The notes beneath the pieces were generated by a model that searched no databases, was not told the DNA's origin, and saw only the letters and a list, made by a program, of their open reading frames with translations. From an uncultured archaeon (lineage in GTDB: Archaea > Nanohalarchaeota > Nanosalinia > Nanosalinales > Nanosalinaceae), in assembly GCA_964421955.1 (NCBI GenBank), contig CAYQYU010000007.1, forward strand, positions 1 to 52,876: a stretch of DNA of 52,876 nucleotides. Reading direction: 5' to 3'. Both the position numbers and the translations under genes were made by a program. Shown here in pieces: positions 3,451 to 37,233 of the stretch (its first letter is position 1; each line of letters starts with the position of its first letter).

Positions 3451-3534
3451 CTATGAGTGGTTAGGCGGCGGCGAGTTTTAAAAATCGAGTTCGGGCTGAG
3501 AGGGTTTTTAATTCTTGGTTTACTGAGGAACGGT

Positions 3535-7363: not shown

Positions 7364-7406
7364 CAGATTTCACTTAATACTCAGAAGTACTCAAAATGTT
7401 AAAACT

Positions 7407-14721: not shown

Positions 14722-14953
14722 ACTCCAGAGCCCCGTGTCTTTCTACAGAGCTGTCCTCAGTGCCAGCGTCTTCACAGTCATCACGCGCATTTTTCTTGTT
14801 TGACAGGATACAGTTTATCTGGTCTCCAAAGCTGGTTCCCGTATCATCTATCTCTGATCCCGTATCATCGGTCACAACAATTAGAGCCGTCGACAGGCCC
14901 AGGACCACGATCAATCCCAGCAAAAGAGCCACAAGCACGTGTTGAACCTCCAT
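14711..14953 (-). CDS. Small pilin-like protein (no basic leader)
   Basis: MEVQHVLVALLLGLIVVLGL; TAATG coupling with upstream gene. Confidence 0.65.
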   Translation of the reverse strand: MEVQHVLVALLLGLIVVLGLSTALIVVTDDTGSEIDDTGTSFGDQINCILSNKKNARDDCEDAGTEDSSVERHGALEYEA

Positions 14954-15120
14954 TATCCCGCACTCACAACGTTCCCGTAGCTCAGATTGGTTTTGTTGAG
15001 CCCAAGTGCCTCAGATAGTCCAACATAATCGCTGAATATGAACGCCATGATCATCACCACTACCACCGCAATAACCAGGACCACTATAGTCCGGACACTG
15101 AAGCTGAACCCTTTCCTCAT
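14953..15120 (-). CDS. 55-aa mini-pilin (not in ORF track)
   Basis: Hand translation MRKG|FSFSVRTIVVLVIAVVVVMIMAFIFSDYVGLSEALGLNKTNLSYGNVVSAG. Confidence 0.8.
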   Translation of the reverse strand: MRKGFSFSVRTIVVLVIAVVVVMIMAFIFSDYVGLSEALGLNKTNLSYGNVVSAG

Positions 15121-15165
15121 AGATAAACTATTTCTCCAATCCCGTTAAAATAGCCTTCCAAATAC

Positions 15166-15318
15166 TCATTTCACGCTCGGGTAGCTTACTCCACCAAGGA
15201 AACCGCCAGCAATATCATTGAACCAGCCGTTGAAAGCTGCGATAAGTATGAAAACCACTATCGCGAACAGCGTTATCAGAGCGACCTCCCTCACAGGTAA
15301 AGAACCCTTCCTCTCCAT
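15166..15318 (-). CDS. 50-aa mini-pilin
   Basis: MERKG|SLPVREVALITLFAIVVFILIAAF. Confidence 0.78.
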   Translation of the reverse strand: MERKGSLPVREVALITLFAIVVFILIAAFNGWFNDIAGGFLGGVSYPSVK

Positions 15319-15387
15319 GACCCAGAATTGGGTAGAACCAGACTTTAAGCTTCCGGGTATCACCGATACACAGATTCTAGAGATAGT

Positions 15388-17097: not shown

Positions 17098-17282
17098 AGC
17101 GAATGCCCCAGCGTGTCCGCTACAGAAGCCCCCACATACCTCAGCAGCCCGGTACATCCCGTGTTGCCCTCCTGGGCCATCAATAATGGTATTATTACCC
17201 CAAGAGCCACCAGCACGATCACAATACCTATTATCAGGTTGAAGGAGATCTGGTCCGGCAGAAGACCTTTTCTGTTTTTCAT
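17082..17282 (-). CDS. 66-aa mini-pilin
   Basis: MKNRKG|LLPDQISFNLIIGIVIVLVAL. Confidence 0.78.
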   Translation of the reverse strand: MKNRKGLLPDQISFNLIIGIVIVLVALGVIIPLLMAQEGNTGCTGLLRYVGASVADTLGHSLCAMR

Positions 17283-17331
17283 GCTCTATTATTGTTGGTT
17301 CTCTGGCTGTTTAAATCATTTCAGGCGCTTT

Positions 17332-17472
17332 CTACTTGAAAGCCTGTTCTATAGCATTTCCCATCGCTGCAGGAAGTGCATCCATCAGAACCAGGCCTGC
17401 GGCTGCCGCCACTAATGCACCGAGTACCGCGAGCAACAGGTGCTGGGTCACCAGGTTTCCTTTGTTTCTCAT
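17332..17472 (-). CDS. 46-aa mini-pilin (not in ORF track)
   Basis: Hand translation MRNKG|NLVTQHLLLAVLGALVAAAAGLVLMDALPAAMGNAIEQAFK; ATGA overlap with platform gene stop. Confidence 0.75.
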   Translation of the reverse strand: MRNKGNLVTQHLLLAVLGALVAAAAGLVLMDALPAAMGNAIEQAFK

Positions 17473-19607
17473 ACCGATATACTGCTGATTATTCCCCCGA
17501 AAAGGAGGCTGACTATTATCAGGGTTATACTGTAGAACAGCATTCCCGAGATAAGTATCTTTCCTGTGAAGAAGTACTTGTAGGTCTTGTCCTCGCCCTT
17601 TGTTATCTTCATGTAGAACTCTCCAAGGATGAAAAGCAGCTGTATAAGGTATATACCGACCACGAGCTGCAGAAACTCGGGAGGTATCGCTTCGTTAAGA
17701 TTTCCGAGTATGCTCTGGAATCCCGGTCCCTGTCCTGTACCTCCTCCAGGCAGGTTCTGCTGTGACTCCTGGAAGCTCGTTGACAGTCTGAACATCGCGG
17801 TTATAATCGTCTGGGACATCCCGACCGCGACGCCTGAAACTACAGGTGCGAGCAGATAGGCAAGCATCTCGATTGTCGTCGTGGTCTCCTCCATCAGATC
17901 GTTCAGCTGTTCCTGTGTCTGGTGGATGTTCTCAAGGTACCTGGAGATCGTTGTCATCGCCATCGCCGCCATGTGGGTGCCTTTCTCCGACGACTCAAGA
18001 ATAGCCTTCATGACGGTCTGAATCATCTGGCTGGGGAACTCGTGGAGCGCCCCGTATCTCTCATGGAATACCGCCTGTTCGAAGGTCATCCCCATGTCCC
18101 GGACGTTGGTCGATGCCTTCTTGAACAGGTCAGATATCTCGAGTTCAGATGTCGCCTCGGCGGCCTCTTCAAGCGCAAGTTCTATCGGTGTTCCGCCGGA
18201 AATCTTGTTGCCCAGCTGGAACAGTGCCGCAGGGAACTGCTGTTCAATATTTCTGAGATGCTCCTCGGCTGCCCTGCGCTCCACGTTCGCCAGCACCAGG
18301 TAGACGCCGAGTCCTATACCGAGGCCTGCGGTGATAGAAACACTTCTCATGAGCATCGGTAGCGGTGCAAAGCTGTCGCCCGCGGTGAAAAGGGAAGGCA
18401 CTGCCGACGGACTGATACTCTCCACGGGATAGAAAAATGGCGCGGCCAGATAACCTATGAAACCGTAGAAGGCTATGACAGCGAAAATTAGCAAACCAAC
18501 AGGCCATACAGGAAGATTCATCCTGCGGCCAAGAAACTCGAATGTGTGCCTACCTCTGGGGGGAAGAGAGTCCTTGCTGACTGGTTTCGAGGAAACAGTC
18601 GGAGGCCGGGAGCTCAGTATGCGTTGCATGAACCAGTAGAGGAATCCCGGGAGAAGGAAGTTGAACAGGATTAAGAGGTGAATAGGCCTTATGATATCTC
18701 CCATAAAGACCGAGATAAGAGGCAGCATGATCATTCCGAGGACCGGCAGCATCGCACCCAGTGCGTTGAGTATCATGACCGGCGTCTTCAGCGACTGCGC
18801 GTAGTGTTTCATCTTCTCCTGTGTACCGTCGAGTATACGGTCGATAGCGTCCTGTAGAAGGGTCTCCCTCCTGTTCTGGTCGGGATCGTTCATCGCGGCC
18901 TGGAGAAGCTGCAGGGCTTCCAGGTAATCATCGTTGTAGTCCTTCCAGCGCCGGGTATACTCCTGTAGAGAATCCTCTATCTTGTTGTAGTTGCCGATCT
19001 CTACATCCCAGAGAACGCCCCTGAGATCCTTCGCTATAGGGCCTTCAAGGTTCAGTGCCGCGAATCTGACCGCGCCCTCAAGATTGGGTGATGCACGCAT
19101 GTAGACAACCATGTACAGTATCGAGAGAATCATCTCTCCTGAACTCCTGATAACCTTGTTCTTGGCTGCGTAAACAGGCCTGTAGTAGGTGTAGACCGTA
19201 GCGGTGAACGGTAGCGAAAGCAGCAGGAGCAGTATCGAATTTGGAACGGGGGCTCCCATGATGAAGTTGAGGCTGAAGGCCATGAACCATGCCATGAAAG
19301 AAGCCAGTCCCAGAGCCACAGACGCCGAGAGGACCATTCCCGGAGTCACATCCCATCCAAGCAGCCTGAGAGCCGGTGTAAGTTTCTCCTGGGTGTTCTC
19401 GCCGGCCTTTATGTTGAATATCGAGGCTGACCTGATACAGAGTCTCTCATACCTCGTCTTCTCGCGCTCCCTGACCTCCTCTTCCCTGTATTCCTGGTAC
19501 TCCCGGGAATAGCCGTGGCCCGATGAGTTGTCGTAAGGCGGGAGCTCCACACTCTTGTTGATCCGGTCGACTATGTCCCGGAGGCGTTCCTTCTCATCTT
19601 CATTCAT
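17469..19607 (-). CDS. Type IV pilus membrane platform protein (PilC/TadC, T2SSF family)
   Basis: Multi-TM with two cytoplasmic T2SSF-like domains (SPNLEGAVRFAA; QFPAALFQLGNKISGGTPIELAL); downstream of the ATPase. Confidence 0.88.
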   Translation of the reverse strand: MNEDEKERLRDIVDRINKSVELPPYDNSSGHGYSREYQEYREEEVREREKTRYERLCIRSASIFNIKAGENTQEKLTPALRLLGWDVTPGMVLSASVALGLASFMAWFMAFSLNFIMGAPVPNSILLLLLSLPFTATVYTYYRPVYAAKNKVIRSSGEMILSILYMVVYMRASPNLEGAVRFAALNLEGPIAKDLRGVLWDVEIGNYNKIEDSLQEYTRRWKDYNDDYLEALQLLQAAMNDPDQNRRETLLQDAIDRILDGTQEKMKHYAQSLKTPVMILNALGAMLPVLGMIMLPLISVFMGDIIRPIHLLILFNFLLPGFLYWFMQRILSSRPPTVSSKPVSKDSLPPRGRHTFEFLGRRMNLPVWPVGLLIFAVIAFYGFIGYLAAPFFYPVESISPSAVPSLFTAGDSFAPLPMLMRSVSITAGLGIGLGVYLVLANVERRAAEEHLRNIEQQFPAALFQLGNKISGGTPIELALEEAAEATSELEISDLFKKASTNVRDMGMTFEQAVFHERYGALHEFPSQMIQTVMKAILESSEKGTHMAAMAMTTISRYLENIHQTQEQLNDLMEETTTTIEMLAYLLAPVVSGVAVGMSQTIITAMFRLSTSFQESQQNLPGGGTGQGPGFQSILGNLNEAIPPEFLQLVVGIYLIQLLFILGEFYMKITKGEDKTYKYFFTGKILISGMLFYSITLIIVSLLFGGIISSISV

Positions 19608-19625
19608 GAGACAAAAACACCTTTG

Positions 19626-21893
19626 CTAAATCTGCTGGTCGAACCACTCTCTCCACCTCGCATAGATCCTCTCAGGGTCCTGCCTACCGTATTCCTCTCC
19701 AACCCTGTCCGCGAGGATGTGGAATCGCTGGTTCGCCTTCACTGTAAAATCTGCCTCAAGCAGCTCAGGCTGGTTCTCCTCGTTTGCGGCCTCAACTATA
19801 TCCTGTTTAATCTTCTTTCTTAGCTGGATGTTGTCCCAGACAGCCTCCCAGTCGTTCTTCCATTCACGTATGTTCTCGGCGATGCGGTTCAGAACCATCG
19901 ACTCGCCATTCTTCAGTGTATCGGTGGGTATGAGCTCGTCCTCGTTGGAGTCGTACCTCATGAGATCCACAAAGGCGTTCTCCTCCTGTGGATCGTCTGT
20001 CCATTCCTTCCTGACCTCTGTAATACCTGTAACGCGCCGGTAAGTGGAAAGACCGTCAGGACTCCTGATCTTGTTGACCGATACGATCACATCAGTAGCC
20101 TTGAATGATGTCTTCGGCACGTTGAGGTCGTTGACAACGCGATCATAAACTGCGTACGGCGACTCGCCGTGGATTGTCCCCCCGACAAAGTTGGCGACCG
20201 CACCAACCCTCATGGCCTCGTAGAGCGTCTTGGCCTCGTCAGAACGGACCTCTCCAATCACAAGCGCGGAGTCGCCGAGGCGGAGCGAAGTTCTGATGGC
20301 CTCATCCGCACCCAGTTCGCTCTCTACCTGGGTTATGACGCTCCTTGATTTCATGCTTTCAATATTGAAACCCAGGTCCTTCATTTCATCGATAGGAAGT
20401 TCGAGAGTGTCTTCCACCGTAACTATGCGGTGCTTCTTCAGCAACTCCAGCATCGATGCCGAAAGTAAAGATGTCTTGCCCGCACCTCTTGTACCCGAGA
20501 AAAGGACGGACCGGTTGCCGTCAACGAGGAAAGAGATCAACGCAGCACCCATCGGATTGACCATCTTGCTGTCGATGAACAGCGGTAGTGTCCATGCCCG
20601 GGAGCGGTGCCGCCTGAACGCGAAAGCAAGCCCCTCCGGGGAAAGATTCTCCTGTATTATCGCAACACGGGCTCGACCTCCTGGAACACGGGTGTCCGTG
20701 TCGAGCACAGGGTTGGCCTCGTCCAGCGGCCGGCCACTTTGAATCCTGAAGCGGGTGGCCCAGGACTCGGCCTCTTCCTTCGTAGGTATCAGGTTGGTCT
20801 CGCACTCCTCGTACTCCTGATGCGAGATGTAAATCGGAGAGTTTCCTATGGGAGAGTTGATGAAAACATCCTGTATCTGGGGATCAGATAACAGAAGCTC
20901 CAGGACGCCAAGTCCAGAGGTGTAACGGTTGAGAATGCCTGTCAGCTGGTCGAGCTCGTCTCCAGTTAGATTTATTCCCATCTGGTTCGCGATGTCCCGG
21001 AGCATGTCTCTACCTATATTCTCGAAGACCTGGCGCATCCTTTCTGGCCGGGCAAACTCTCCAGATTCGGGCTCGTGCGACGCCATAAATCTCCTCGCGG
21101 CATCAAGTAATTCGTATTTCTCCTCGCTAAGATTGAACTCCGGGGGATTGACATGGTAGACCGGCTGGACTTTGTCAGGCACCTCGTATATCGAAACCTC
21201 GATATCGTTCCTGACCTCGTAACGATCGATTTCTTCCCCTCTCTCAGGCGGGAGGGACATGAACTTCGTAAGCATGAAGTTTGGCCTCACGAGAGGGTGG
21301 AAGAACTCTCTGTAAACCTCCCGGTCGCCGATGTGGTGACCGGTGATGAAGTCCTGCTCCCGGGCTCTCTGTATCAGCTGGGTCTCCTCCATCCTGTCAA
21401 GTATGGGGTCGATAACGTCGTTGACGAAGTACTTGGTGCATCTTTTTCTCGTGGGATACTGGTCACTCATCTGCTGCTTCAGGTGCCTTCTCTTCCGCAA
21501 AATCTTGACATAGGCACCTATAGGATCTTTCCTGAGCATGTCAACGACTATCTGCTGAATCTCCGGCAAGTTATTAGCGTAGAAACTCTCGCATTTCTCA
21601 TTTCCGTGGTTAGATAGATATCCCTGGGAGGATATATCCTGTATAGTGTCCGCGATCTCCTTTAACAGCGAGACCTGTTCATCGTTGTACTCGTAGTCCC
21701 GGGACTCTGAAAGTACAACCGAAGAGGCATCGGGCACTTCCTGGAGTATGTTGATTACCCGGGACATCACCTCGGGATAATCCTCTATGCTTGCGCCGTA
21801 GATTGACCCGAGAGTGTTGACCTCGATTGTACCGGTCTCGTCGTCGTACTCGTAGTCGAAAACGTCCAGATCTCTTACAGACATACCCAGCAT
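19626..21893 (-). CDS. Type IV pilus assembly ATPase (PilB/VirB11-like)
   Basis: Walker A GTRGAGKTS, Asp box TVEDTLEL, Walker B LVIGEVR, His box GTIHG. Confidence 0.95.
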   Translation of the reverse strand: MLGMSVRDLDVFDYEYDDETGTIEVNTLGSIYGASIEDYPEVMSRVINILQEVPDASSVVLSESRDYEYNDEQVSLLKEIADTIQDISSQGYLSNHGNEKCESFYANNLPEIQQIVVDMLRKDPIGAYVKILRKRRHLKQQMSDQYPTRKRCTKYFVNDVIDPILDRMEETQLIQRAREQDFITGHHIGDREVYREFFHPLVRPNFMLTKFMSLPPERGEEIDRYEVRNDIEVSIYEVPDKVQPVYHVNPPEFNLSEEKYELLDAARRFMASHEPESGEFARPERMRQVFENIGRDMLRDIANQMGINLTGDELDQLTGILNRYTSGLGVLELLLSDPQIQDVFINSPIGNSPIYISHQEYEECETNLIPTKEEAESWATRFRIQSGRPLDEANPVLDTDTRVPGGRARVAIIQENLSPEGLAFAFRRHRSRAWTLPLFIDSKMVNPMGAALISFLVDGNRSVLFSGTRGAGKTSLLSASMLELLKKHRIVTVEDTLELPIDEMKDLGFNIESMKSRSVITQVESELGADEAIRTSLRLGDSALVIGEVRSDEAKTLYEAMRVGAVANFVGGTIHGESPYAVYDRVVNDLNVPKTSFKATDVIVSVNKIRSPDGLSTYRRVTGITEVRKEWTDDPQEENAFVDLMRYDSNEDELIPTDTLKNGESMVLNRIAENIREWKNDWEAVWDNIQLRKKIKQDIVEAANEENQPELLEADFTVKANQRFHILADRVGEEYGRQDPERIYARWREWFDQQI

Positions 21894-21926
21894 TATTATT
21901 CAGGCATCTATTGAATAAAAGATGGG

Positions 21927-22382
21927 ATGCCCCAGCAGGAAATCGTAAACCAGGTTATCAACCGGGTAAACGACTTTAATCGCCGGGTTAGAGACCTCGA
22001 AGAGAAGGTGAGAAACGTGAGCGCGAGAGTCAACACTCTCGACGATACGCTTCTCAACAAGACCAAGTCGCTCAGCCAGGATATGCAGAGCCTGGAGGAC
22101 GAGATTTCTGAAGTCCGCGACCGGATAGCCAATATGGAGGTCGACATCAAGGAACTTAACCGTGAGAAACGGAAGTTCGTGACCTCACAGGAGATAGAGG
22201 AGATAGAGAACTATATGGAGCTGATGAATCCTATCCACTCCTCTTTCACAACCAAGAAAGAGGTAAAGAAGATGATGGAGCATCAGGACGGCCTCACAAG
22301 GGAACAAGTCGAGAAAATAGTAGACAGAAAGATAAAAAGCCTGGAAAGACAATCTGACGATGAGGAAGAGGATATTCCATGA
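21927..22382 (+). CDS. Coiled-coil protein divergent from pilus ATPase
   Basis: Heptad repeats; coupled to next gene by ATGA overlap. Confidence 0.8.
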   Translation: MPQQEIVNQVINRVNDFNRRVRDLEEKVRNVSARVNTLDDTLLNKTKSLSQDMQSLEDEISEVRDRIANMEVDIKELNREKRKFVTSQEIEEIENYMELMNPIHSSFTTKKEVKKMMEHQDGLTREQVEKIVDRKIKSLERQSDDEEEDIP

Positions 22383-23275
22383 AGTTCCAGCTATTCGGCA
22401 GACTCAGGGATGATGAAGACGGCGAGGACAACGGAAACTCTCCGGCACCCCAGGCACCCCAGTCGCCCGGAATGGATAACGGTACGGAAGGCGGCCCAGG
22501 ACTAGGGGGCGGCCTGGAGAGAACTGTCGAAAACATGTTTTCACAGGGATACTCACAGGACGAGATAAAACAGGAACTCCAGGGACAGTACTCCCCGAAC
22601 AGGATTGAACAGGCTGTCAACCAGGCAGTTGCAACTTCTGCCCAGGGAGAGACTGAAGGACCGGAACCCATGACTCCTTATCAGGGCGAAACCGATGCGG
22701 TGAGTCCTGTGGACCAGGGATTCGACCAGAAAGATGTACAGAATAATGCACCCGGAGACGCGAACCCGGGAAACGGTATAAACAGTATGAATAGTACGAA
22801 CGAGATGGGTGACATGGATAATATGCAGCAACCACCTCCCGCGGATCAAGGATCAAACCCTCCTCCCAACACGCAGACCGTCGATCCTGGCGTTGAAGAG
22901 CTCGTTGAAACCATCGTGGCAGAGAACTTTGATCTGGTGGAGACAGAGTTTGAAAACGTCTACAGCGAAATCGACGAGATGAAGGAAAAACTCGAGGACC
23001 TGGAGCAGAGAGTTCACGATCTCGAAGTCCGGGATGATGAAGATCAGAGCGAGTTCATCCAGAAAATGAACGAGATGGAGGACCATATCGACTCCTACCA
23101 GTCCCGCATCGGAGGACTGGAAAAGGCTTTCCAGCAGGTGCTGCCATCGCTAGTCGACAATGTCCGCGATTTAACTGAACTCGTACAGGAGATCAAGCAG
23201 GAGAGGGGAATCGAGACGGACAAGAACGTTTCAAGCCAGGATATTGAAGATCTCGACGTCGAGGACTGGGACTAG
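22379..23275 (+). CDS. Acidic protein with small helical domain and coiled coil
   Basis: QGYSQDEIKQEL small domain, VEELVETIVAE, C-terminal heptads. Confidence 0.8.
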   Translation: MKFQLFGRLRDDEDGEDNGNSPAPQAPQSPGMDNGTEGGPGLGGGLERTVENMFSQGYSQDEIKQELQGQYSPNRIEQAVNQAVATSAQGETEGPEPMTPYQGETDAVSPVDQGFDQKDVQNNAPGDANPGNGINSMNSTNEMGDMDNMQQPPPADQGSNPPPNTQTVDPGVEELVETIVAENFDLVETEFENVYSEIDEMKEKLEDLEQRVHDLEVRDDEDQSEFIQKMNEMEDHIDSYQSRIGGLEKAFQQVLPSLVDNVRDLTELVQEIKQERGIETDKNVSSQDIEDLDVEDWD

Positions 23276-23281
23276 AACTTC

Positions 23282-23785
23282 TCAATCGCTGCTTCCGACC
23301 GTGGCCGAGACCACAAGCAGCAGGAATACCAGGACCAGTATCGGCATCACCACTTCATCGAACGTGTTCTGGACACCTCCAAGCAGGTTTCCAAGATCAA
23401 CCGTGAAGAAAAACGCTCCCAGGAATGACAGCAGCGCCAGAACTATCGCAGCACCTACAGGCAGATCGCCTTCTCCCATGGCCTCTCCGACATCGTAGCC
23501 TGCGACGGCCAGAAGGATCATGAGGCCGAGAAGTCCAAATACCGAGAAGGTCAATGCGGCCGCAAAGTTTGTCAGGATGCCTGCAGGCAGGTAGAGCAGC
23601 ACTCCCCCGATAGAAACGAATGCGACTGCGAGCGCTATGACGCCGTTGACCTGGGCATCCTCACTGAAGACGTTGTACTTCTCCAGGACGCCATAGGTGA
23701 CCGCGAGGATGAGCAGCCACGGGAAGAACAGCTGGATTATATCCATCTCGGCCAGCAGTCTTACCACATCGCCGAAAGCTCCCAT
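23282..23785 (-). CDS. Multi-pass membrane protein
   Basis: About 5 TM; FFPWLLILAVTYGVLEK motif related to the next gene. Confidence 0.8.
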   Translation of the reverse strand: MGAFGDVVRLLAEMDIIQLFFPWLLILAVTYGVLEKYNVFSEDAQVNGVIALAVAFVSIGGVLLYLPAGILTNFAAALTFSVFGLLGLMILLAVAGYDVGEAMGEGDLPVGAAIVLALLSFLGAFFFTVDLGNLLGGVQNTFDEVVMPILVLVFLLLVVSATVGSSD

Positions 23786-23793
23786 TCAATCAC

Positions 23794-24408
23794 CTATCCG
23801 TCTTCATCCTGATCTACTCTCTGCCAGCCCCCTCCACCAGGGAAGGGCGCCCACCAGTCGGTACCGCTGTCGCTTGGCTCACTCGTCACCCAGTAGAGCG
23901 CCGCACCAATCGCGATCAGCCATATCAGGCCGGACTCGAAAGTGAAGTTGACCAGCTCAACCAGCGTCATGCTGACAAACGGTAACTGGGCCTGCGGAAT
24001 GAAGGCGAATGCTCCTCCGGAAAGTGCAAATGCGGCGATAGTACCGATGACTATGACTGCCGCAAATCCTAGTCTCCGGAAGTCCTCCATCTCCCATCCC
24101 ACGAATGAGACAAAGATCATGAAGCCGAGCAGACCGATCAGTCCTATAGCTATTCTTCCTGTATACTCAGTGAAGTAGGATGCGTAGATAGGGTTCTGTA
24201 CTATGAAGTTGGCAACGAAGAACGCCAGGATAATCGATATGAGTGCAGCGAACTTCGTCTCGTTATCCTCACCTACGCTACCCATAAGGTTGAGCTTCTT
24301 TATGGCGAGGAAGAACAGTACGTAGCTCAGTAGAAACGGCAGTATTCCTGTGAAGAAATCGGCGCTAGCCATTGTCTGGAGCAACTGGTTGAAGCCGGTT
24401 ACTGCCAC
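23794..24408 (-). CDS. Multi-pass membrane protein, paralogue of 23282-23785
   Basis: About 5 TM; ILPFLLSYVLFFLAIKK and LIGLLGFMIFVSFVGW mirror the neighbour. Confidence 0.8.
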   Translation of the reverse strand: MAVTGFNQLLQTMASADFFTGILPFLLSYVLFFLAIKKLNLMGSVGEDNETKFAALISIILAFFVANFIVQNPIYASYFTEYTGRIAIGLIGLLGFMIFVSFVGWEMEDFRRLGFAAVIVIGTIAAFALSGGAFAFIPQAQLPFVSMTLVELVNFTFESGLIWLIAIGAALYWVTSEPSDSGTDWWAPFPGGGGWQRVDQDEDG

Positions 24409-24412
24409 TTAT

Positions 24413-24667
24413 CTATTCACCTTCCTCAAGCCTTTTTCTGTTGTGAAGGTTCATTAACCATAGTTCGCGGGCGATGATCATCAGCGCAAGCATGGTGATC
24501 CACGGCTGGATGACCTTCCCGAAAGATATGAGACCAATATCGCTTGAGGCCCAGAAGAAGGTCCAGACGGTTACAAATATAGCTCCGAAAGATAGTACGG
24601 CGATCGCGAACTCGTCCATGAAGTTCTCGAGCTCGTACAGGTATTCGTGGAACTTCTTGTCGTTCAT
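24413..24667 (-). CDS. Two-TM membrane protein
   Basis: 84 aa, two hydrophobic helices, operonic. Confidence 0.72.
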   Translation of the reverse strand: MNDKKFHEYLYELENFMDEFAIAVLSFGAIFVTVWTFFWASSDIGLISFGKVIQPWITMLALMIIARELWLMNLHNRKRLEEGE

Positions 24668-24819
24668 CCGAACAGTCCACCTCCACCCATACCACCCATA
24701 CCACGGCGGTTACGTCTTCCTAGGAACCATTTTAGCACGAATCCGACAGCTATACCGATTGCCAGAACATCCGGGTTGTTCATTATACCGGTCATGATCG
24801 ATTGTACCGTGAAAGCCAT
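24664..24819 (-). CDS. 51-aa single-TM protein with Gly/Met tail (not in ORF track)
   Basis: Hand translation MAFTVQSIMTGIMNNPDVLAIGIAVGFVLKWFLGRRNRRGMGGMGGGGLFG; ATGA overlap with next gene. Confidence 0.72.
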   Translation of the reverse strand: MAFTVQSIMTGIMNNPDVLAIGIAVGFVLKWFLGRRNRRGMGGMGGGGLFG

Positions 24820-24886
24820 CTATTTAACGCCTCTATTGCCTCTATTACCAGTTATAGGTTTTTCGTTTAAATATCTGTTTCGTCTT

Positions 24887-26920
24887 CTAGTATCTCCGGA
24901 CATCAATATCGCTCTGTTTGAAGGCATCCATGACCTCTCTCTCCTTGTCGCCTATCGTATCGGCGACCTCATTGGGCCAGTTCTCCCTGCTGCCTATCGC
25001 TCTCTGGAGCTTCTGGAAATCAGAGTAGGCATTGTTAGGATTTTGAGCTATCTCCTGCTCGACCTCATTCAGCCGTTCCAGGGCCCGTCTTTCGAGTTGC
25101 TGGAGTAGATTTTCCGCAAGATCCGTTATCTGCGCTGCCGTCCTCTGCTGTTGTTGATCGAGATTTTCCTGGCTCAGCTGCCTCACACGAGAGTAGTCAG
25201 CGACTATCTCTTCGACGGCGCCTTCCTGTACGGCGTACAGCCCGTCACTCCGGACTGTTTCAAGCACGTTCTGGAGATCCTGTCGAATCCTCTGGAGGTT
25301 CATGTCGAGCTCTTCTTCCCTCTCTGTCTCGGTCTTGTCTATGGCCTCCATCTCTTCCAGTTCTTGCTCTATGCTCCATTCAAGCTGATCGGCGGCCTGG
25401 GCCAGCTTTGCAAACTCTTTATCGATCTTTGCTGCTTCGGTCTCTTCGGCCTTGACGCCCTGCTCTTCCTCTTCCAGGAGCCATTCAAGCTGCTCACCCA
25501 GGTTCTCGAGATCGTAGGTCTCTCCTTCCTCGTCCTGGAGCGTCTTCTTCTCTTCAGTTATGAACTTCATGAGCTTTCTGTCCCATTCCTCAGGAATACT
25601 GAACTGTGACTCCCTCTCCTCCTCGTTCCGTTCCATCTGCTCTCCCTTCTGCTCTTCTGCCTCGAGTTCTTCGAAGGCATCTCCCAGATCGGCGGTCACA
25701 TCCATGAGGCCTTCCATCTGGTCTTCAAGAGTTGCGATGCGGGACTTGATGGCCTGTCTCTCCTGTGCGGCCTGCTGAAGCTGCTGCCTTATATTTCCGA
25801 CTTCGTTCATAATTGCCTGGAACTGGTTCTGCAGCTGCTGTTTCTGGCGCTCGTATTCTTCCCTTTCTACGACACCGTCCTGTAACTGCTGTTCCAGCTG
25901 TTCCAGCTCCTGCTTCACCTGGTCTCTCTGCTGCTTGAGCTGCTGCATCTCCTGCCTGATCTGTGAAAGATCCTGTTCGGTCTGCTGCTCCATCTGGGCG
26001 ATCATCTGTTCCAGTTCGGCGATTTCTTCCTCATTCTGCTCTATGTTTTCCTCGGCCTGGAGAATTTTCTGATTATTCTGCTCGATACGCTCCTCAAGCT
26101 GCTCCAGAGATTCCGAGTCCTCTATAAGCTGTTCGACCTCTCTAGCCTGCTTCTGCGTCAGTTTGCCCTGCTTCACCAGTTCTGGAAGCCTCTGTTCGAA
26201 CTCCTCAAGACTCTCAACATCGTTCCGGAGCTGCTGAAGCTCCTGCATAACCTGCTGGTCCTCGCCTTCGACATCATCTATTCTCTGCTGTAGCTGCTGG
26301 ATGGCTTCATCTGTCTGGCGCATGTGGTCCTCTAATGGCTCCGGTATTCCTCCATCCTCTCCTCCCGGTGCGGTACCCGGAGCAGGACCTGTATCATCGC
26401 CTCTCCTATCCGCTCTTGCTCCCCCGTCAGGCGCAGCACCGCCTCCTCCCATATCGACCATGTCCGTAAGCGAACTGAATATTCCTGCGTAACCTAGTCC
26501 TACGGCGAGGAACGCAAACACACCGAAAACCATCAAACCCCAGAGACCAATAAACGCCGCAACACCATTAGCCGAAACAAAAGCAATAGCAAAAGCAAAA
26601 CCCTTCGCACCCAGAGGTACTCCGCCCTGATCAGTCCTGTAACGACGACCTATGCCCAGGGATTCTTCGATCATCCCGAATACCTTTGAGGTAAGGAACT
26701 TTGAAGGGAAATAGAAACCCGCCACAACCGCGATGAAGATAGCGCCCATACTGATAGAACCGATCTCGAACAGGGTGATCGAATTCAGGAGCCCAAGTAT
26801 TAGCTCCGCAAAACTGTCTGCACTCAGTGGGTTATCGCCCGTGATCTGCGCGGAGACGGAGAATGTTTGAGTGATTATTACAGAGAGGAAAAACGCTATC
26901 TTTGTCCGTTTCTGACCCAT
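24887..26920 (-). CDS. Signal peptide + membrane domain + long coiled-coil protein (paralogue A)
   Basis: VSA|QITGDNPLSADSF, TM block, Gly/Pro linker, long E/Q heptad region; start MGQKRTK preferred. Confidence 0.82.
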   Translation of the reverse strand: MGQKRTKIAFFLSVIITQTFSVSAQITGDNPLSADSFAELILGLLNSITLFEIGSISMGAIFIAVVAGFYFPSKFLTSKVFGMIEESLGIGRRYRTDQGGVPLGAKGFAFAIAFVSANGVAAFIGLWGLMVFGVFAFLAVGLGYAGIFSSLTDMVDMGGGGAAPDGGARADRRGDDTGPAPGTAPGGEDGGIPEPLEDHMRQTDEAIQQLQQRIDDVEGEDQQVMQELQQLRNDVESLEEFEQRLPELVKQGKLTQKQAREVEQLIEDSESLEQLEERIEQNNQKILQAEENIEQNEEEIAELEQMIAQMEQQTEQDLSQIRQEMQQLKQQRDQVKQELEQLEQQLQDGVVEREEYERQKQQLQNQFQAIMNEVGNIRQQLQQAAQERQAIKSRIATLEDQMEGLMDVTADLGDAFEELEAEEQKGEQMERNEEERESQFSIPEEWDRKLMKFITEEKKTLQDEEGETYDLENLGEQLEWLLEEEEQGVKAEETEAAKIDKEFAKLAQAADQLEWSIEQELEEMEAIDKTETEREEELDMNLQRIRQDLQNVLETVRSDGLYAVQEGAVEEIVADYSRVRQLSQENLDQQQQRTAAQITDLAENLLQQLERRALERLNEVEQEIAQNPNNAYSDFQKLQRAIGSRENWPNEVADTIGDKEREVMDAFKQSDIDVRRY
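26489..26624 (+). repeat. 136-bp exact repeat, copy 1
   Basis: Base-by-base identical to 28978-29113. Confidence 0.95.
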
Positions 26921-26963
26921 CGTAAGTAACAATTCTTTTCCCGACTTTTAAAGCGTTTTTACC

Positions 26964-27494
26964 TCAGTTGAAGACCTTGTACATTATCAGCAACAGTACT
27001 GCGATGAAGAAGCCCAGGGATAGAACTCCTATAGATGCTATAGCTCCTCTTATGTAGCCCCATAGAGGTGATGGAACAAGTATGCCTGTGATCGTGATCG
27101 CCATCAGGGTCGAGTACTTCCTGACATCAGGCCTCTGGTCCCTTATCGGGAAACCAACAGGCACGCCCCGCGGTATTTCGTCATCTCTTATGACGAAGTG
27201 GAGAACTTTCGAGAGGATGAACTGGAGCAGGATCGACAGGAACACGAACGGTGCAACAAGCTCAACCAGTATCTCTTCCTGGGAGTCGAACTGCGGAACA
27301 GAGAACTCCGTGCCTCCTATCTGATCGCCTCTTATCGCCCCACCGCTATGGGAGGCGGCCGCAAATGCTACCAGAAAAATTATCATCGACAGGGAGACGA
27401 TATACTTACTCGCCGAAATCCATATCCCCCCCACCAAAGTCGCCGTTTCCTCCGCCACCGAAGTCTCCACCACTTTTCGAGCGCGCGTGTTCAA
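26964..27494 (-). CDS. Multi-pass membrane protein (true start probably downstream of track start)
   Basis: Signal-like segment plus three TM helices; LVAPFVFLSILLQFILSK resembles the 23282/23794 motif. Confidence 0.65.
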   Translation of the reverse strand: MNTRARKVVETSVAEETATLVGGIWISASKYIVSLSMIIFLVAFAAASHSGGAIRGDQIGGTEFSVPQFDSQEEILVELVAPFVFLSILLQFILSKVLHFVIRDDEIPRGVPVGFPIRDQRPDVRKYSTLMAITITGILVPSPLWGYIRGAIASIGVLSLGFFIAVLLLIMYKVFN

Positions 27495-27684
27495 GGTAGG
27501 TGGGTATCACCTCATCGACAAGGAACCCTGATATGAGCCCTGAAACCCCGACAACAAGGAGATTCGACAGAAAGCTTGAGAGCCCTGTAAAGTCTCCTAC
27601 AACCGTAGAAACAGCCGTGACCGACACAACGTAGCCCGCTATGGCCGCGAAGGGAAAGGCAACGTATTTCCAGGGATCTCTCAT
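27406..27684 (-). CDS. Two-TM protein with GGDFGG tail
   Basis: 92 aa, two hydrophobic helices, Gly-rich repeat tail. Confidence 0.72.
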   Translation of the reverse strand: MRDPWKYVAFPFAAIAGYVVSVTAVSTVVGDFTGLSSFLSNLLVVGVSGLISGFLVDEVIPTYLEHARSKSGGDFGGGGNGDFGGGDMDFGE

Positions 27685-27744
27685 AACGAAAGGTTCTCGA
27701 TCCTATTTTTTATATTCTCAGGCCCGTGACCGGATGTCTATCTG

Positions 27745-29424
27745 TTATTTATTCCTGTAGTCCTGGCGTATCTCGCTGACCTTCCCCAGTATCTCCTGGA
27801 CCCTTCTACCATTACTAACAGCATTCCGGATCTTCTCAATATACTCCTCGGTGGAGCGCGCCTCCTGGTCGATCCGCTGGGCTTCCTGTTCCTCGGCCTG
27901 CTCAGCTTCCCGCTCTTCTTCGAGAGTGCCCTCTTCTTCACTCGTTACCTGTTCCGCCTTCTGTTCGACGTCCTGCGCCTCCTCAAACTCAGACTCGATT
28001 CCCTGCTCGACCTGCTCATCCTCCTTTACGTCGCTTCCTATCTCCTGGATATCTCTCTCCTCTCGCTGGTCGTGCTCGTGGCTTTCGACGTACTCAACTT
28101 CCTCCTGGGTCTTCTGCTCAATATCCCCAAGCTCCTGTTTCAGTTGTTGAGCCTCACTAACTCCCTTCTGTAGCTCCTGCTCGACCTGCTGTTCCTCCTG
28201 CTCTGTTTCTTCCAGCTCCTGCTCGGCGCCGGTTATACGGTTCTTCGCATCGTCGAGTCTTTGCTTTACATCACCAAGGAAGCCCTGTCTAAGGTTCTCA
28301 ACCTGCTGTTCAATTTTTCCAAGCTCCTGGATGTCCTCCTGGGCCTGCTGTTCGTGCTGCTGTGCCGCCTGCTGGTTTCCCTGCTGCCTTGCCTCGGCGG
28401 CGGCCTCTTCCTGCTGCATGTAATCATCTATTAGCTGTTCAGCCCTATTTCTGAACTGCTGGAGCCTTCCCTCAGCCTCTTCTTCCTCTTCAGCCACCTG
28501 CTCCAGTTCCTGGTAAACCGTCTTCTCTATTTCCTCTACCTCCTTCAGGTGCTCAAGTTCAACTTCTTCCTTCTGGACCACATCCTCGATACCCTCTATA
28601 AGAGTCATCTCCCGCCTTTCACTGTCCTCGAACTCCTGGACGATCTGCTGCATTTCTTCACGGGCGCCGGCCGGGATGTTCCTGTCCTGGATCAGGTCCT
28701 GGGCCGCCTGCTCGAATGGCTCGTTCTTCAGTTTCTGGAACTGCTCTTCAAGATTCTTCGCCTTCTTCCTCTCGTCATTCCATTCATCAAAGCTGGATTT
28801 GATCTGTTTTCCCTGTTGTCCCAGCCGGCTACCAACATCTCCAAGTATATTCTTCACGCCGTTTATCCCCTTCTGTGTAGCGCGGCCTGCTGCTCGGGCC
28901 GCGCTGCCTCCAGATCCTCCTGTACGGCCGCCGCCTCCAAGACCTACCATGCCGAGGAGGTTGCCGCCGATTCCCATGTAACCTAGTCCTACGGCGAGGA
29001 ACGCAAACACACCGAAAACCATCAAACCCCAGAGACCAATAAACGCCGCAACACCATTAGCCGAAACAAAAGCAATAGCAAAAGCAAAACCCTTCGCACC
29101 CAGAGGTACTCCGTCGCTCTGGTAACTTCTACCCATATCCAGAGAGTCCTCGATCATGTGGAAGACCTTGGACACCAGGAACTTGGACGGGAAGTAGAAA
29201 CCAGCCACAACCGCAAGAAACAGGGCTCCTGTACTTATTGAGTCGATCGGGAATACGGTGATTGCGTTGAGCAAGCCCTGTATAAGTTCTGCAAAGCTGT
29301 CCGCGCTCAACGGATTGCTGCCCGTGATCTGGGCAGAGACAGACGTGAGCGAGAGCACTGCAAAAGCGGACATAGATAACAGTTTTTCAGTCAAGCCCCT
29401 TTCTGTCCTTGCTGCAGACAGCAT
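27745..29424 (-). CDS. Signal peptide + membrane domain + coiled-coil protein (paralogue B)
   Basis: VSA|QITGSNPLSADSFAELI nearly identical to paralogue A; divergent coiled-coil C-terminus. Confidence 0.82.
   Translation of the reverse strand: MLSAARTERGLTEKLLSMSAFAVLSLTSVSAQITGSNPLSADSFAELIQGLLNAITVFPIDSISTGALFLAVVAGFYFPSKFLVSKVFHMIEDSLDMGRSYQSDGVPLGAKGFAFAIAFVSANGVAAFIGLWGLMVFGVFAFLAVGLGYMGIGGNLLGMVGLGGGGRTGGSGGSAARAAGRATQKGINGVKNILGDVGSRLGQQGKQIKSSFDEWNDERKKAKNLEEQFQKLKNEPFEQAAQDLIQDRNIPAGAREEMQQIVQEFEDSERREMTLIEGIEDVVQKEEVELEHLKEVEEIEKTVYQELEQVAEEEEEAEGRLQQFRNRAEQLIDDYMQQEEAAAEARQQGNQQAAQQHEQQAQEDIQELGKIEQQVENLRQGFLGDVKQRLDDAKNRITGAEQELEETEQEEQQVEQELQKGVSEAQQLKQELGDIEQKTQEEVEYVESHEHDQREERDIQEIGSDVKEDEQVEQGIESEFEEAQDVEQKAEQVTSEEEGTLEEEREAEQAEEQEAQRIDQEARSTEEYIEKIRNAVSNGRRVQEILGKVSEIRQDYRNK
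28978..29113 (+). repeat. 136-bp exact repeat, copy 2
   Basis: Identical to 26489-26624. Confidence 0.95.
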
Positions 29425-29461
29425 ACATACCGTTTATTGTAGTTCCTCTTTAATAATTACG

Positions 29462-29710
29462 CTAATCCTGTTCCTCAAACTTCCCCAGTCTCTCCAGCGT
29501 CTCAAGTATACCCCAGGCGTATACCACGGATTCCCAGGCCCTGATGTAGTCTTCCTCCTCCAGGAAGTGCTCTGTGTCGTCCCTGTAGGCCAGAACGTTC
29601 TCCATCTGCTCCACGTCTTCATCGCGGTCTTCGAGCCGTTCCTCCAGCTTCTGAAGCCACTTCCTGGTCTCTTCTCTCAGCTTCTCCTGGGTCTTGTCCA
29701 TTAAATTCAC
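29462..29710 (-). CDS. DUF357 family protein
   Basis: AYRDDTEHFLEEEDYIRAWESVVYAWGILE; adjacent to dph5 as commonly seen in archaea. Confidence 0.85.
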   Translation of the reverse strand: MNLMDKTQEKLREETRKWLQKLEERLEDRDEDVEQMENVLAYRDDTEHFLEEEDYIRAWESVVYAWGILETLERLGKFEEQD

Positions 29711-30408
29711 CTGTGCTCCTCGATAAACTCCTCTTCCTTATGAGAGGTTTCTCCCGTTAGTATAATCGAGTGCGGGGGCTTCCCAAAATCAGAATCCTCG
29801 ATGCATGATAAACTGTCGACCGATATCGACTGTGACTCGTGGTTGGCTCTCTCGAGAACTATGGCTTCGCGATCACCTTCTATTCCAAGGTTGACCAGCT
29901 TCTCCGCGGCCTTGTTAGCAGGATAGTCGATGTCCAGAAGCACCAGACTGTGGAGGCCTAGGGAATCGTTCTCCCAGATATACTCGGCTACCGACTCTGG
30001 CGCCGAATCTTCGGGCAGAGTCACGACGCGACCGAGCTTGTAGATGTTCAGGCCGGTCTCTGCCACGGAAGACAGTATCGAAGGTGCGTGGATAACCTCG
30101 ATATCGATACCCTCCTGTTCCGCCCTGTGTTTGATGTCGTAGTGTGTCGTCGCGGTTAGAGGGTCTCCCGAGACCAGGAACGCAGTGTCCCTCTCCCGGG
30201 CGGATTCAAGTATTCTATCCTCCTGTTCGACCTCTTCCCGGTCAAGCTCTACTATCTCGGTGCCTGTTTCTTCCTCTAGAGCTTCGGTATCGATGTTCCC
30301 GGTGTTTGTGTAGAACTCCGCGAAAGCTTTCTCCACTTCACCAAGAGCCTCTACCCCTTTCCGGGTTATTTCCCGGTCGTCAAGCCCGAGTCCTATAATG
30401 TAGAGCAT
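29707..30408 (-). CDS. dph5: Diphthine synthase
   Basis: MLYIIGLGL, EFYTN, LVSGDPLTATTH, GLNIYKLG, LHSLVLLDI. Confidence 0.93.
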   Translation of the reverse strand: MLYIIGLGLDDREITRKGVEALGEVEKAFAEFYTNTGNIDTEALEEETGTEIVELDREEVEQEDRILESARERDTAFLVSGDPLTATTHYDIKHRAEQEGIDIEVIHAPSILSSVAETGLNIYKLGRVVTLPEDSAPESVAEYIWENDSLGLHSLVLLDIDYPANKAAEKLVNLGIEGDREAIVLERANHESQSISVDSLSCIEDSDFGKPPHSIILTGETSHKEEEFIEEHR

Positions 30409-30448
30409 AACCGTTATCCATAAACCAATACTTATTAGCACTTAGCAT

Positions 30449-31477
30449 ATGGAACAGAAAGAGCTCGAGCTCCGGGTAAAACAGATCTTCGAGCAGCAGG
30501 GCTTCGAAGTGAAAAGGTGGAACGACGAGTTTGTCGCGGGAAAAGGCAGTACGGAAAAAGAGATCCAGGTCTTCTCCTCAGAAGACCACAACCTCGAAGA
30601 CCTGAAGAACGAGGTAGAGCCGGGGACACTGGTGTTTGTCGATACGGGACTGGAGAGTATCGTGGAAGAAATAGAGAACGAGGTATCAGTGATCAGGGAG
30701 GACGATACCGAGGACTACGACCTGCCATCCTATGAGATTATCGGAGACTTGGTGATCATCAGCGAGCTTTCAGGGGATGAAGACGAATCGGTCAAGGGAA
30801 TCCTGGAGCACCACCCACACGTAGAGACTATCCTGCTGAAAGAAGAGCCGCTCTCCGGAGAGTTCCGGGTTGGCGGGTACAGGAAGCTCTACGGGGAAGA
30901 AACCGAGACAACCCACAAAGAGTTTGGTTGCCGCTACCGGATCGACCCCACGAAAGCCTATTTTTCCGAGAGGCTTGCGACCGAGAGAAAACGGGTGGTT
31001 GACCAGATCCAGGGCGGGGAAAAAATTCTCGTCATCGGAGCCGGAGTAGGGCCTTACGCGATCCTGGCCGCAAGAAAGGCTTCGCCCGAGAGAATTGTCG
31101 CGGTCGAGAAGAACCCCGATGCGTTTGAATACCTGGAGGCGAACATCGAGCTGAACGGGGTTGAGGACACCGTGGAGGCGGTCGAGGGGGATGCCCTGGA
31201 GGTCGTTTCTGGAAAGTTTGACAGGATAATAATCGCAATCCCTGAGTTCGGCAACGAGTTCCTTGAACTGGCGTTCGAGCACGCCGACACTGAGGCAAAA
31301 ATCCATTACTACAGCTTCATGGAGGATAAGGACTGGGAGCCGCTTATGGAAGAAGTAGAAAGGGTCGCGGAAAAACTTGGGATGGATTATAGGATAGAAG
31401 ACAGGGCCGTCTGTGGACAGAGAGGGCCTTCAGTTGACCGGGTATGTATCGACATCGAACTCGTCAGTAGAAAGTAA
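30449..31477 (+). CDS. Trm5/Taw2-family tRNA methyltransferase
   Basis: SYEIIGD, ETTHKEFG, AYFSERLATER, GAGVGPYAI, EKNPDA. Confidence 0.88.
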   Translation: MEQKELELRVKQIFEQQGFEVKRWNDEFVAGKGSTEKEIQVFSSEDHNLEDLKNEVEPGTLVFVDTGLESIVEEIENEVSVIREDDTEDYDLPSYEIIGDLVIISELSGDEDESVKGILEHHPHVETILLKEEPLSGEFRVGGYRKLYGEETETTHKEFGCRYRIDPTKAYFSERLATERKRVVDQIQGGEKILVIGAGVGPYAILAARKASPERIVAVEKNPDAFEYLEANIELNGVEDTVEAVEGDALEVVSGKFDRIIIAIPEFGNEFLELAFEHADTEAKIHYYSFMEDKDWEPLMEEVERVAEKLGMDYRIEDRAVCGQRGPSVDRVCIDIELVSRK

Positions 31478-31596
31478 TATAACATCTTCTTCGTCTTCTA
31501 ATTCTTGCGCCATAAGAAGCATTCTCAAAATCTCGCGGAGCAAATCATTCACACTTAAAAGAGTGTTGTCACTAGTCAATAGATAAAGGTGTTCTG

Positions 31597-34002: not shown

Positions 34003-34075
34003 TCGAAGGCTTTATATTATTTACTGCATAGTGACAACTATAATGATCGGAATGTCCAGAGGGCGCTTAACTCAA

Positions 34076-37141: not shown

Positions 37142-37152
37142 AACTTTCGTCT

Positions 37153-37183
37153 TTGATAAGTGACTAAGATCTGTCACTATCAA
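37153..37183. promoter_or_regulatory. Intergenic inverted repeat (terminator or operator)
   Basis: ttgata(a)gtgac-N8-gtcactatcaa between the two surface-protein genes. Confidence 0.5.
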
Positions 37184-37233
37184 CGAATATTTAAAAGTTA
37201 GATAAAGTGTTATTTCTAGGTGACAATACAATA

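Follow-up and report, generated by a model that had tools for sequence, protein, structure and literature searches.

Candidate accessory genes of a type IV filament machine in DPANN archaea: a conserved core and a variable layer beside a PilB-type ATPase

We examined a contig of 52,876 nucleotides (referred to as the window; CAYQYU010000007.1 in assembly GCA_964421955.1, contig C7 of its genome) from an uncultured nanohaloarchaeon, whose genome of 0.92 Mb is 98.8% complete and encodes an acidic proteome. At positions 21927 to 29424, directly beside the genes for a PilB/FlaI-type secretion ATPase of 755 amino acids and a PilC/TadC-type platform protein, this contig carries ten genes, all of them present with the architectures described in the original prediction, which was made from the sequence alone. 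The reading that we favor, with modest confidence, is that these are accessory genes, in two layers, of a single type IV filament machine of DPANN archaea, centered on the ATPase and PilC. A core layer, consisting of cc151, cc298, tm167, and tm204, is conserved in sequence and in position beside the ATPase, across the order of nanohaloarchaea as well as in a second phylum of DPANN archaea. Sequence comparison separates from this core a variable layer consisting of tm176, big681, big559, tm84, tm51, and tm92.

The predicted architectures suggest how such accessory proteins might work. The soluble coiled-coil proteins cc151 and cc298 would act at the motor as a scaffold or regulator in the cytoplasm, by analogy to ArlC/D/E or ArlX of the archaellum, and the paralogues tm167 and tm204, each with five predicted transmembrane (TM) helices, could form a heteromeric membrane collar beside the platform that exposes only a short acidic amphipathic helix outside. 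The variable layer would reuse the membrane module of this core. In the big proteins, a Gly-rich linker would connect the module with long coiled coils in the cytoplasm, which may act as tethers or spacers of the machine within the cell and would not reach the host.

Conservation of the core genes beside the ATPase

The genes for the ATPase (19626 to 21893) and the platform protein (17469 to 19607) lie on the minus strand. We compared the neighborhood of the ATPase in 31 loci of relatives, in all of which PilC adjoins it, and counted the accessory genes in two ways, by a profile search on greedy gene calls and by BLASTP of all open reading frames (ORFs) at a coverage of at least 50%. Because greedy gene calling overlooked three small genes of the window itself (tm84, tm51, and tm92), the profile-based counts of small genes are underestimates, and the all-ORF BLASTP is the better measure for them. 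Among the 28 loci with at least 3 kb of sequence upstream of PilB, the profiles found cc298 in 25, tm167/tm204 in 26, and cc151 in 20, with a constant gene order. In the 20 loci that extend at least 8 kb upstream, they found tm176 in 15, the N-terminal domain of the big proteins in 10, tm51 in 11, tm84 in 10, and tm92 in 7. By all-ORF BLASTP, cc151 was present in 28 of the 31 loci, tm167 in 27, tm204 in 25, and cc298 in 23, followed by tm84 (21), tm51 (15), tm92 (14), tm176 (14), big681 (1), and big559 (0). The median identities fall from 76% for PilB, 67% for cc151, 62% for PilC, and 56% for cc298 to 46% for tm167, 37% for tm204, and 34% for tm176. It is these locus counts and falling identities that distinguish a constrained core from a fast-evolving, lineage-specific layer.

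The core is also found outside the phylum of the window. One locus of the Aenigmatarchaeota contains three members of the 5-TM family of tm167 and tm204, together with a cc298-like gene (E value of 8e-27) and a cc151-like gene (E value of 3e-19), all divergent from the gene for a 753-amino-acid PilB ortholog (E value of 9e-260), and the same locus encodes PilC and small single-helix proteins. In another genome of this phylum, a 5-TM family gene adjoins a Peptidase_A24 prepilin peptidase. The core genes (cc151, cc298, and tm167/tm204) are therefore not scattered, the outcome that the original prediction had named as speaking against it, and stand beside a PilB-type ATPase in most relatives and in the second phylum. 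Its view of all ten genes as one apparatus had to be given up: among the 31 loci, tm84, tm51, tm92, and the big proteins occur only in those of the same family and in varying combinations, and the big proteins have a single BLAST ortholog at the coverage used.

A membrane module probably shared by five of the ten genes

The core membrane proteins tm167 (23282 to 23785, minus strand) and tm204 (23794 to 24408, minus strand), the latter with an acidic, Gly-rich C-terminal tail, are paralogues (hhalign 99.4%, E value of 1e-21, 156 columns). They belong to a DPANN-wide family, whose profile they match with E values of 1e-47 to 6e-50, and share all of its traits, namely, a length of 165 to 205 amino acids, an acidic amphipathic N-terminal helix, five TM helices, and the pattern (L/F)P(F/W)LL...YG.L.K in TM1. 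An AlphaFold2 (AF2) model of tm167, with a predicted local distance difference test (pLDDT) score of 82, likewise shows an amphipathic N-terminal helix and five TM helices. A Foldseek search of the PDB with this model gave nothing at an E value of ≤0.001, and the best match in a VIA search (Z score of 6.5, 54 aligned residues, root mean square deviation [rmsd] of 2.8) was a helical hairpin in the noise range, as was the best VIA match of the big559 N-terminal domain (Z score of 7.6, 66 aligned residues, rmsd of 3.3). None of 22 sampled family members reached the cutoff in a Pfam scan, and the family is without a Pfam model and without a solved fold.

The two big proteins, big559 (27745 to 29424, minus strand) and big681 (24887 to 26932, minus strand), proved to be paralogues, as originally proposed, with 37% identity over 564 amino acids (E value of 8e-59). 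Each begins with a signal/TM0 segment and three TM helices, in big559 with an amphipathic helix between them, and continues through a Gly-rich linker, which is disordered in big559, into a long coiled coil, which is acidic in big681. The smaller tm176 (26964 to 27494, minus strand) corresponds to a stand-alone version of their N-terminal membrane domain. For the comparison between the two, we used strictly disjoint sequence sets, since the profile of the big N-terminal domains otherwise absorbs tm176 members; this gave an hhalign match of 89% (E value of 2e-6, 101 columns). The original prediction had grouped tm176 with tm167 and tm204 as three related multi-TM proteins. This relation holds for the latter two, and for tm176 it is remote and partial with respect to tm204 (hhalign 75 to 91%, E values of 2e-5 to 1e-6; 77 columns at 91%) and not detectable with respect to tm167. 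In the shared module, an acidic amphipathic helix precedes a TM helix that bears the pattern (L/F/V)(P/A)(F/W)...K, which is the motif noticed from the sequence at the outset. By this chain of descent, a single membrane module is probably common to five of the ten genes, and the N-terminal domains of the big proteins were probably derived from the module of the core.

As to other origins, a role of the big proteins as MotA/ZorA-like stators with tails found no support among the VIA matches listed; no chain of the MotA/ExbB/ZorA type of 5:2 stator units was among the 50 matches listed for the big559 N-terminal domain or for tm167, which does not exclude such a fold.

The coiled-coil pair cc151 and cc298

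The two plus-strand genes, cc151 (21927 to 22382) and cc298 (22379 to 23275), encode proteins without TM segments. The start of cc151 lies 33 nucleotides from the divergent start of PilB, and the start of cc298 overlaps the stop of cc151 by 4 nucleotides. The alignment of cc151 has a mean column identity of 59%, and its Pfam matches are to generic coiled-coil models only; the TPR/MLP1 nuclear-pore model (TPR_MLP1_2) was matched by 12 of 23 members, below the cutoff. In cc298, a UBA-like three-helix N-terminal domain, whose structure matches were a three-helix miniprotein and the UBA chains of CBL and RAD23, is followed by a Q/N/G-rich linker and a conserved helical C-terminal domain with 31 invariant alignment columns. 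The commonest Pfam match of cc298 is FlaC_arch, found in 26 of 27 members at an E value of ≤0.01 (best, 1.5e-6). We rejected membership in this family as a generic coiled-coil signal, because cc298 scores 24.0 bits against FlaC_arch (PF05377), below the gathering cutoff of 27.8, and because this model scores equally weakly at four places of the window's genome, none of them over the cutoff, and also matches in Thermotoga. An assignment to DUF7310 was rejected as a signal of the same generic kind.

ArlC/D/E in Euryarchaeota and ArlX in Crenarchaeota form the cytoplasmic scaffold of the archaellum, ArlX consisting of a membrane anchor and a cytoplasmic coiled coil, which assembles into rings around the ATPase. 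Similar to these, cc151 and cc298 are coiled-coil proteins encoded beside a FlaI/PilB-type ATPase. The anchor with a cytoplasmic coiled coil that TM parity and the distribution of Lys and Arg (K/R) residues suggest for big559 and big681 is likened to ArlX by architecture, not by sequence. The locus differs from that of an archaellum in its FlaC_arch scores, which stay below the cutoff, and in its ATPase, which is no FlaI equivalog. No archaellin scored over the cutoff in the genome, and neither archaellins nor ArlF/G or ArlH were found in this locus. A complex prediction that combined cc151, the C-terminal domain of cc298 (residues 165 to 298), and the N-terminal domain of PilB (residues 1 to 225) with separate alignments and without controls gave 0.00 compared to a mark of 0.32, which speaks neither for nor against binding.

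Elsewhere in the window, at 6119 to 8993 on the minus strand, we observed a 414-amino-acid coiled-coil protein with the same generic matches as cc151 (Baculo_PEP_C, E value of 2e-11), together with a 528-amino-acid protein that carries one of the four weak FlaC_arch places of the genome.

Distribution of the 5-TM family and its co-occurrence with the ATPase

Among 1.84 billion proteins, the profile of the 5-TM family found 2583 representative clusters at an E value of ≤0.001 and 1136 at an E value of ≤1e-10. A protein atlas placed tm204 among unnamed clusters of Nanobdellota and Woesearchaeota, and a word-indexed homolog search with the family alignment returned 47 proteins, all from close nanohaloarchaeal relatives. 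One member (P0120) is labeled Thorarchaeota. This label may be a binning error, since its nearest genomic relatives (L044 and L045; 43 to 55% identity) are Aenigmatarchaeota.

Among 70 genomes of the window's phylum, the 5-TM family was present in 60, nearly always as tandem tm167/tm204 copies, and the N-terminal domain that is specific to this ATPase in 59. Both were found in 58 genomes and neither in 9; two had the family only and one had the ATPase N-terminal domain only. In one of the two family-only genomes (G037), a C-terminal piece of the ATPase is cut at a contig end. In the second phylum, where the ATPase shares 45 to 57% identity with that of the window's phylum, the family was detected in all 121 sampled genomes and an ATPase ortholog in 120. 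We compared the first 51 listed genomes of this set by hand: one was without an ATPase match, and in 32 of the remaining 50 the family and the ATPase lie within 8 kb of each other, a distance that was taken from the best listed matches only, so that other copies may lie nearer. The ATPase and its companion genes are kept in 27 of 28 high-quality nanohaloarchaeal genomes. Given that minimal DPANN genomes of two phyla keep the machine almost universally, it probably matters for the host-dependent life of these archaea.

Several points weigh against assigning the ten genes to the filament machine. Adjacency alone is weak evidence, because tiny genomes keep ancestral synteny, and the co-occurrence is weaker than it looks, because adjacent genes drop together from incomplete assemblies; most of the co-absences look confounded in this way, with G026 (91% complete) and G061 (7 contigs) as the only credible co-losses. 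In 14 of the 50 genomes of the second phylum, the listed family copies lie on contigs other than that of the ATPase, and in 4 they share its contig at a distance of more than 20 kb. Two genomes of the window's phylum (G028 and G029) carry a block of cc298 and two 5-TM genes on a contig other than that of PilB/PilC, with a second PilC in place of PilB beside the block. The 5-TM family comprises the large number of clusters given above, and its range was mapped within DPANN. With regard to the membrane module, direct comparisons of the big N-terminal domains with tm167 or tm204 were not significant (hhalign 2 to 18%); a search with a profile of just the long proteins recovered 6 of the 15 short ones at an E value of <1e-3, the window's own tm176 not being one of them, and composition may inflate hhalign scores between TM-rich profiles. 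For the coiled-coil pair, the FlaC_arch scores belong here as well. Finally, the binding of the accessory proteins to the motor is inferred.

Some of these points fit an alternative in which the coiled-coil genes and the 5-TM genes form an autonomous membrane system, involved in the envelope, in membrane shaping, or in division, and owe their position beside PilB/PilC merely to ancestry. Consistent with this, cc298 and the two 5-TM genes stay together in G028 and G029 when unlinked from PilB, 18 of the 50 genomes of the second phylum have no listed copies within 8 kb of the ATPase, and no family membership ties the proteins of the block to filament systems. In the second phylum, co-occurrence says little, because both the family and the ATPase are nearly universal there. 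However, the divergent arrangement has been kept across two phyla at an ATPase identity of 45 to 57%, and among the 70 genomes 9 co-absences stand against 3 discordant cases. Moreover, one member of the 5-TM family adjoins a prepilin peptidase, and a profile search of the window's genome found the families of the module at only one of its four ATPase loci. We therefore consider an autonomous system unlikely.

The variable layer

On the minus strand, eight genes (big559, tm92, tm176, big681, tm51, tm84, tm204, and tm167) converge on cc151 and cc298, in a run that continues from DUF357 and dph5. With the exception of the overlap between tm176 and tm92, the gaps in this run are operon-like (−4 to 67 nucleotides); for example, 4 nucleotides separate tm84 from tm204, and tm51 overlaps tm84 by 4 nucleotides. 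With its annotated TTG start, tm176 extends 89 nucleotides into tm92, and its orthologs begin near the equivalent of codon 20. This start is probably placed too far upstream, with an in-frame GTG/TTG at codons 20 to 21 or an ATG at codon 37 as likelier candidates.

Three tiny TM proteins, two of them with Gly-rich tails, were part of the original prediction and were borne out by the comparison: tm84 (24413 to 24667, minus strand) has two TM segments, tm51 (24664 to 24819, minus strand) has a single TM segment and a tail that is first Arg rich and then Gly rich, and tm92 (27406 to 27684, minus strand) has two TM segments and a DFG/Gly-rich tail. Gly-rich segments also occur in tm204, big559, and big681. 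By hydropathy, the ten proteins contain no TM segments in cc151 and cc298, about five in tm167 and tm204, three in tm176, one to two in the three tiny proteins, and three to four in the N termini of the big proteins. Because tm84, tm51, and tm92 recur in 21, 15, and 14 of the 31 loci, respectively, the sequences indicate that these small ORFs are real genes. The identity of tm84 across its loci is 45 to 78%, and tm92 always adjoins tm176 where it was found among the greedy gene calls. The big proteins are highly divergent. A single-sequence query with the big559 N-terminal domain found it in only 3 of 24 genomes of the same family, and a word-indexed homolog search with this domain returned two proteins, one of which was the window's own big681.

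The slot between the core and DUF357/dph5 varies in content, and in some other loci it holds large coiled-coil proteins without a membrane domain. We also observed a soluble family of 347 to 397 amino acids between tm51 and the big proteins in seven relatives (L013, L014, L016, L023, L025, L029, and L031), with no homolog in the window's genome. Such turnover would be expected if the six genes of the variable layer were fast-evolving filler in a permissive slot, with no role in the machine. We regard this as quite improbable, given that tm84 (with identities of up to 78%), tm92, and tm51 are conserved within the family, that tm176 and the big N-terminal domains appear to be derived from the membrane module of the core, and that the spacing to the core genes is as tight as in an operon.

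Topology of the big proteins and the question of host contact

The original prediction had interpreted the ten genes as an apparatus for host contact, fusion, or a conduit. Spelled out, this would be a channel built of the membrane proteins, with coiled coils that point outward to the host, in line with the sigma-1-like attachment that Hamm et al. 2024 proposed for DPANN coiled-coil proteins. Whether the coiled coils could do so depends on the topology of the big proteins. An AF2 model of residues 1 to 230 of big559 (pLDDT of 74.6) contains the signal/TM0 helix, an amphipathic helix, three TM helices, the disordered Gly-rich linker at residues 166 to 187, and the coiled coil, and thus has four membrane helices. 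Across 30 members of the family, Lys and Arg make up 21% of residues before helix h0, 0.4% (4 of 926 residues) after h0, 17% in loop 1, 4% in the turn between TM2 and TM3, and 7% in the first 25 residues of the tail. This pattern supports an N-in/out/in/out/in topology of the big proteins, with the coiled coils predicted in the cytoplasm, and makes it unlikely that the long coiled coils are contact fibers. By the same logic, tm167 and tm204 would have an N-out/C-in topology, although this is less clear. As a topology marker, charge in the 40-residue segment that follows the last TM helix was dropped as uninformative, because only 2 of 15 long proteins show more K+R than D+E there.

For host contact speak the signal-peptide-like N termini of the big proteins, which end in ...AxAQ, their extremely fast divergence, and the linkers of some of their homologs, which are rich in Ser, Gly, Pro, and Asn and resemble a type known from extracellular stalks. 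Furthermore, none of the candidate pilins comes close to the ATPase in conservation, and cultivated DPANN archaea need contact with a host, as described in the main text of Hamm et al. 2024 (Nat Commun, PMC11291902). Against it stand the K/R pattern and TM parity, which put the tails in the cytoplasm, as well as the lack of a signal peptide or TM segment in cc151 and cc298. In addition, the core is conserved rather than arms-race-like, the Foldseek and VIA searches with tm167 and the VIA search with the big559 N-terminal domain found no pore-like or fusogen-like fold, and the variable genes occur only in the same-family loci sampled. An apparatus of this kind thus appears doubtful to us; a host-contact or conduit role is disfavored for the coiled coils and less so for the machine as a whole. 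A yet more speculative version, to which we give only slim credence, is a near-universal DPANN machine of ATPase, PilC, cc151/cc298, and the 5-TM pair whose main job is not adhesion but moving material across the envelope at host contact, in which host lipids, nucleic acids, or proteins would be taken up, with the 5-TM family as the conduit and the filament as a piston or grappling device.

Relation to described filament loci

The original prediction had anticipated that coiled-coil genes near DPANN pili might already be on record, and this is the case. The main text of Hamm et al. 2024 (PMC11291902) describes CpaF and TadC together with coiled-coil proteins (CCPs) at two loci that are conserved across cluster-2 DPANN, including Nanohaloarchaeota and Aenigmarchaeota, and proposes attachment-protein-like and sigma-1-like roles for the CCPs. 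The locus studied here resembles these in having an ATPase (CpaF) and a platform protein (TadC) beside coiled-coil proteins, with a coiled-coil protein carrying a "nucleopore-like" domain within ten genes of CpaF/TadC, a likeness by description and not by the sequences of the CCP orthogroups. The TPR/MLP1 matches of cc151 probably explain the "nucleopore domain" label used in that work. Unlike in our description, the word "transmembrane" does not occur in the main text of the paper, the supplementary data of which may list the genes considered here.

For archaeal type IV pili (T4P), the section of Makarova, Koonin and Albers 2016 (PMC4858521) on subclade 4F reports an intracellular coiled-coil protein, arCOG07564, as a proposed regulatory subunit, and notes that the clade 4F ATPase also occurs in nanoarchaea without identified pilins. 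The ATPase of this subclade has an extra variable N-terminal domain that is often Cys rich, which is similar, by description only, to the ATPase considered here, whose Aenigmatarchaeota ortholog has 6 Cys residues in its first 45 positions; 5-TM proteins are not described in that section. A census of type IV filaments with MacSyFinder2 models (PLoS Genet 2026, PMC13705601) reports in its main text adjacent ATPase and platform genes but scattered pilins and subsystem components for Nanobdellati (DPANN), and an ambiguous subsystem identity for most DPANN loci. The term "coiled-coil" is absent from that main text, and the present module is not among the accessory components given there. A literature search that covered the main texts of Hamm et al. 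2024 and PMC13705601 turned up no earlier account of the 5-TM family or the TM plus coiled-coil paralogues. Coiled-coil proteins beside DPANN pilus loci have thus been published, and the membrane proteins may be new.

For filament loci that the published censuses define by an ATPase and a platform protein of ambiguous identity, a defined accessory set of five genes adds concrete targets, including a large membrane protein family without a Pfam model and without a solved fold. If the big proteins reuse the membrane module of the core with their coiled coils pointing inward, this narrows their possible functions.

Motor, candidate filament subunits, and neighboring features

In a Pfam and NCBIfam scan, none of the ten proteins reached a family cutoff, in line with the original statement that they resemble no standard archaellum or pilus accessory proteins; known transporter families were not matched either, also by sampled family members. 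The 755-amino-acid ATPase has a lineage-specific N-terminal domain of ∼220 amino acids and matches T2SSE (E value of 4e-14) as well as FlaI and TadA models (E values of 1e-36 to 8e-39). Its assignment as the archaellum FlaI equivalog was rejected, because it scores 134 bits against the FlaI model, compared to a cutoff of 550. Its identity is 74 to 87% in 20 of the 24 genomes of the same family, 67 to 76% in the other four, and 50 to 72% in other families of the order. The platform protein has 712 amino acids, is polytopic, and matches T2SSF (E value of 4e-9). The locus thus combines a VirB11/PilB-type ATPase with an adjacent PilC/TadC platform protein, as type IV filament loci do. In five relatives (L039, L040, L041, L042, and L043), the PilB orthologs are 1250 to 2003 amino acids long and carry stop-free in-frame insertions of ∼500 to 1250 amino acids after about residue 497, some of them near residue 550. 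In appearance they resemble one or two inteins in the vicinity of the P loop, and PilB insertions were also seen in the second phylum.

Downstream of PilC, proteins of 46, 66, and 589 amino acids (15388 to 17472, minus strand), each with one N-terminal hydrophobic helix, are candidate filament subunits with a putative pilin role. Iterated profiles found the 66-amino-acid type and the 589-amino-acid type downstream of PilC in 22 loci each, and a Pfam scan of the small single-helix proteins downstream of PilC gave no match. Beyond the 589-amino-acid protein, at 11621 to 15363 on the minus strand, proteins of 395, 231, 173, 163, and 153 amino acids and smaller ones, again with one N-terminal hydrophobic helix each and without a Pfam match, may add more pilin-like subunits to this locus.

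Three further type IV filament-like loci are present in the window's genome. The first (C1:18294-23366) contains a prepilin peptidase, a 571-amino-acid coiled-coil protein, and an ATPase; the peptidase, at C1:20573-20914 beside this ATPase paralogue, is a class III signal peptidase with a Peptidase_A24 match over the cutoff and lies outside the locus studied here. The second (C3:13190-27406) comprises GatE, a thermosome-like gene, four pilin-like genes, an ATPase, and two half-size platform genes; in its GatE, thermosome-like, and pilin genes, it resembles Locus 1 as described in the main text of Hamm et al. 2024, the candidates for Locus 2 being the locus studied here and that on C1. The third (C12:7722-14722) has an ATPase, a KaiC/ArlH-like gene, platform genes, and a weak archaellin-like match.

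No RNA families or tRNA genes were found at positions 14000 to 31500 of the window. The sequencing runs listed for positions 21927 to 29424 comprised 4 DNA runs of a single study and no RNA runs. Its first 3,700 nucleotides (1 to 3700) contain genes of the Phage_integrase family at 100 to 696 and 1970 to 3436 and may be the edge of an integrated element, with a G+C content of 0.39 in the first 2 kb compared to ∼0.52 elsewhere. Finally, two surface-type proteins are encoded at 34031 to 38979 on the plus strand, one of 1036 amino acids with PKD and CarboxypepD_reg domains and one of 590 amino acids with Ig-like domains.

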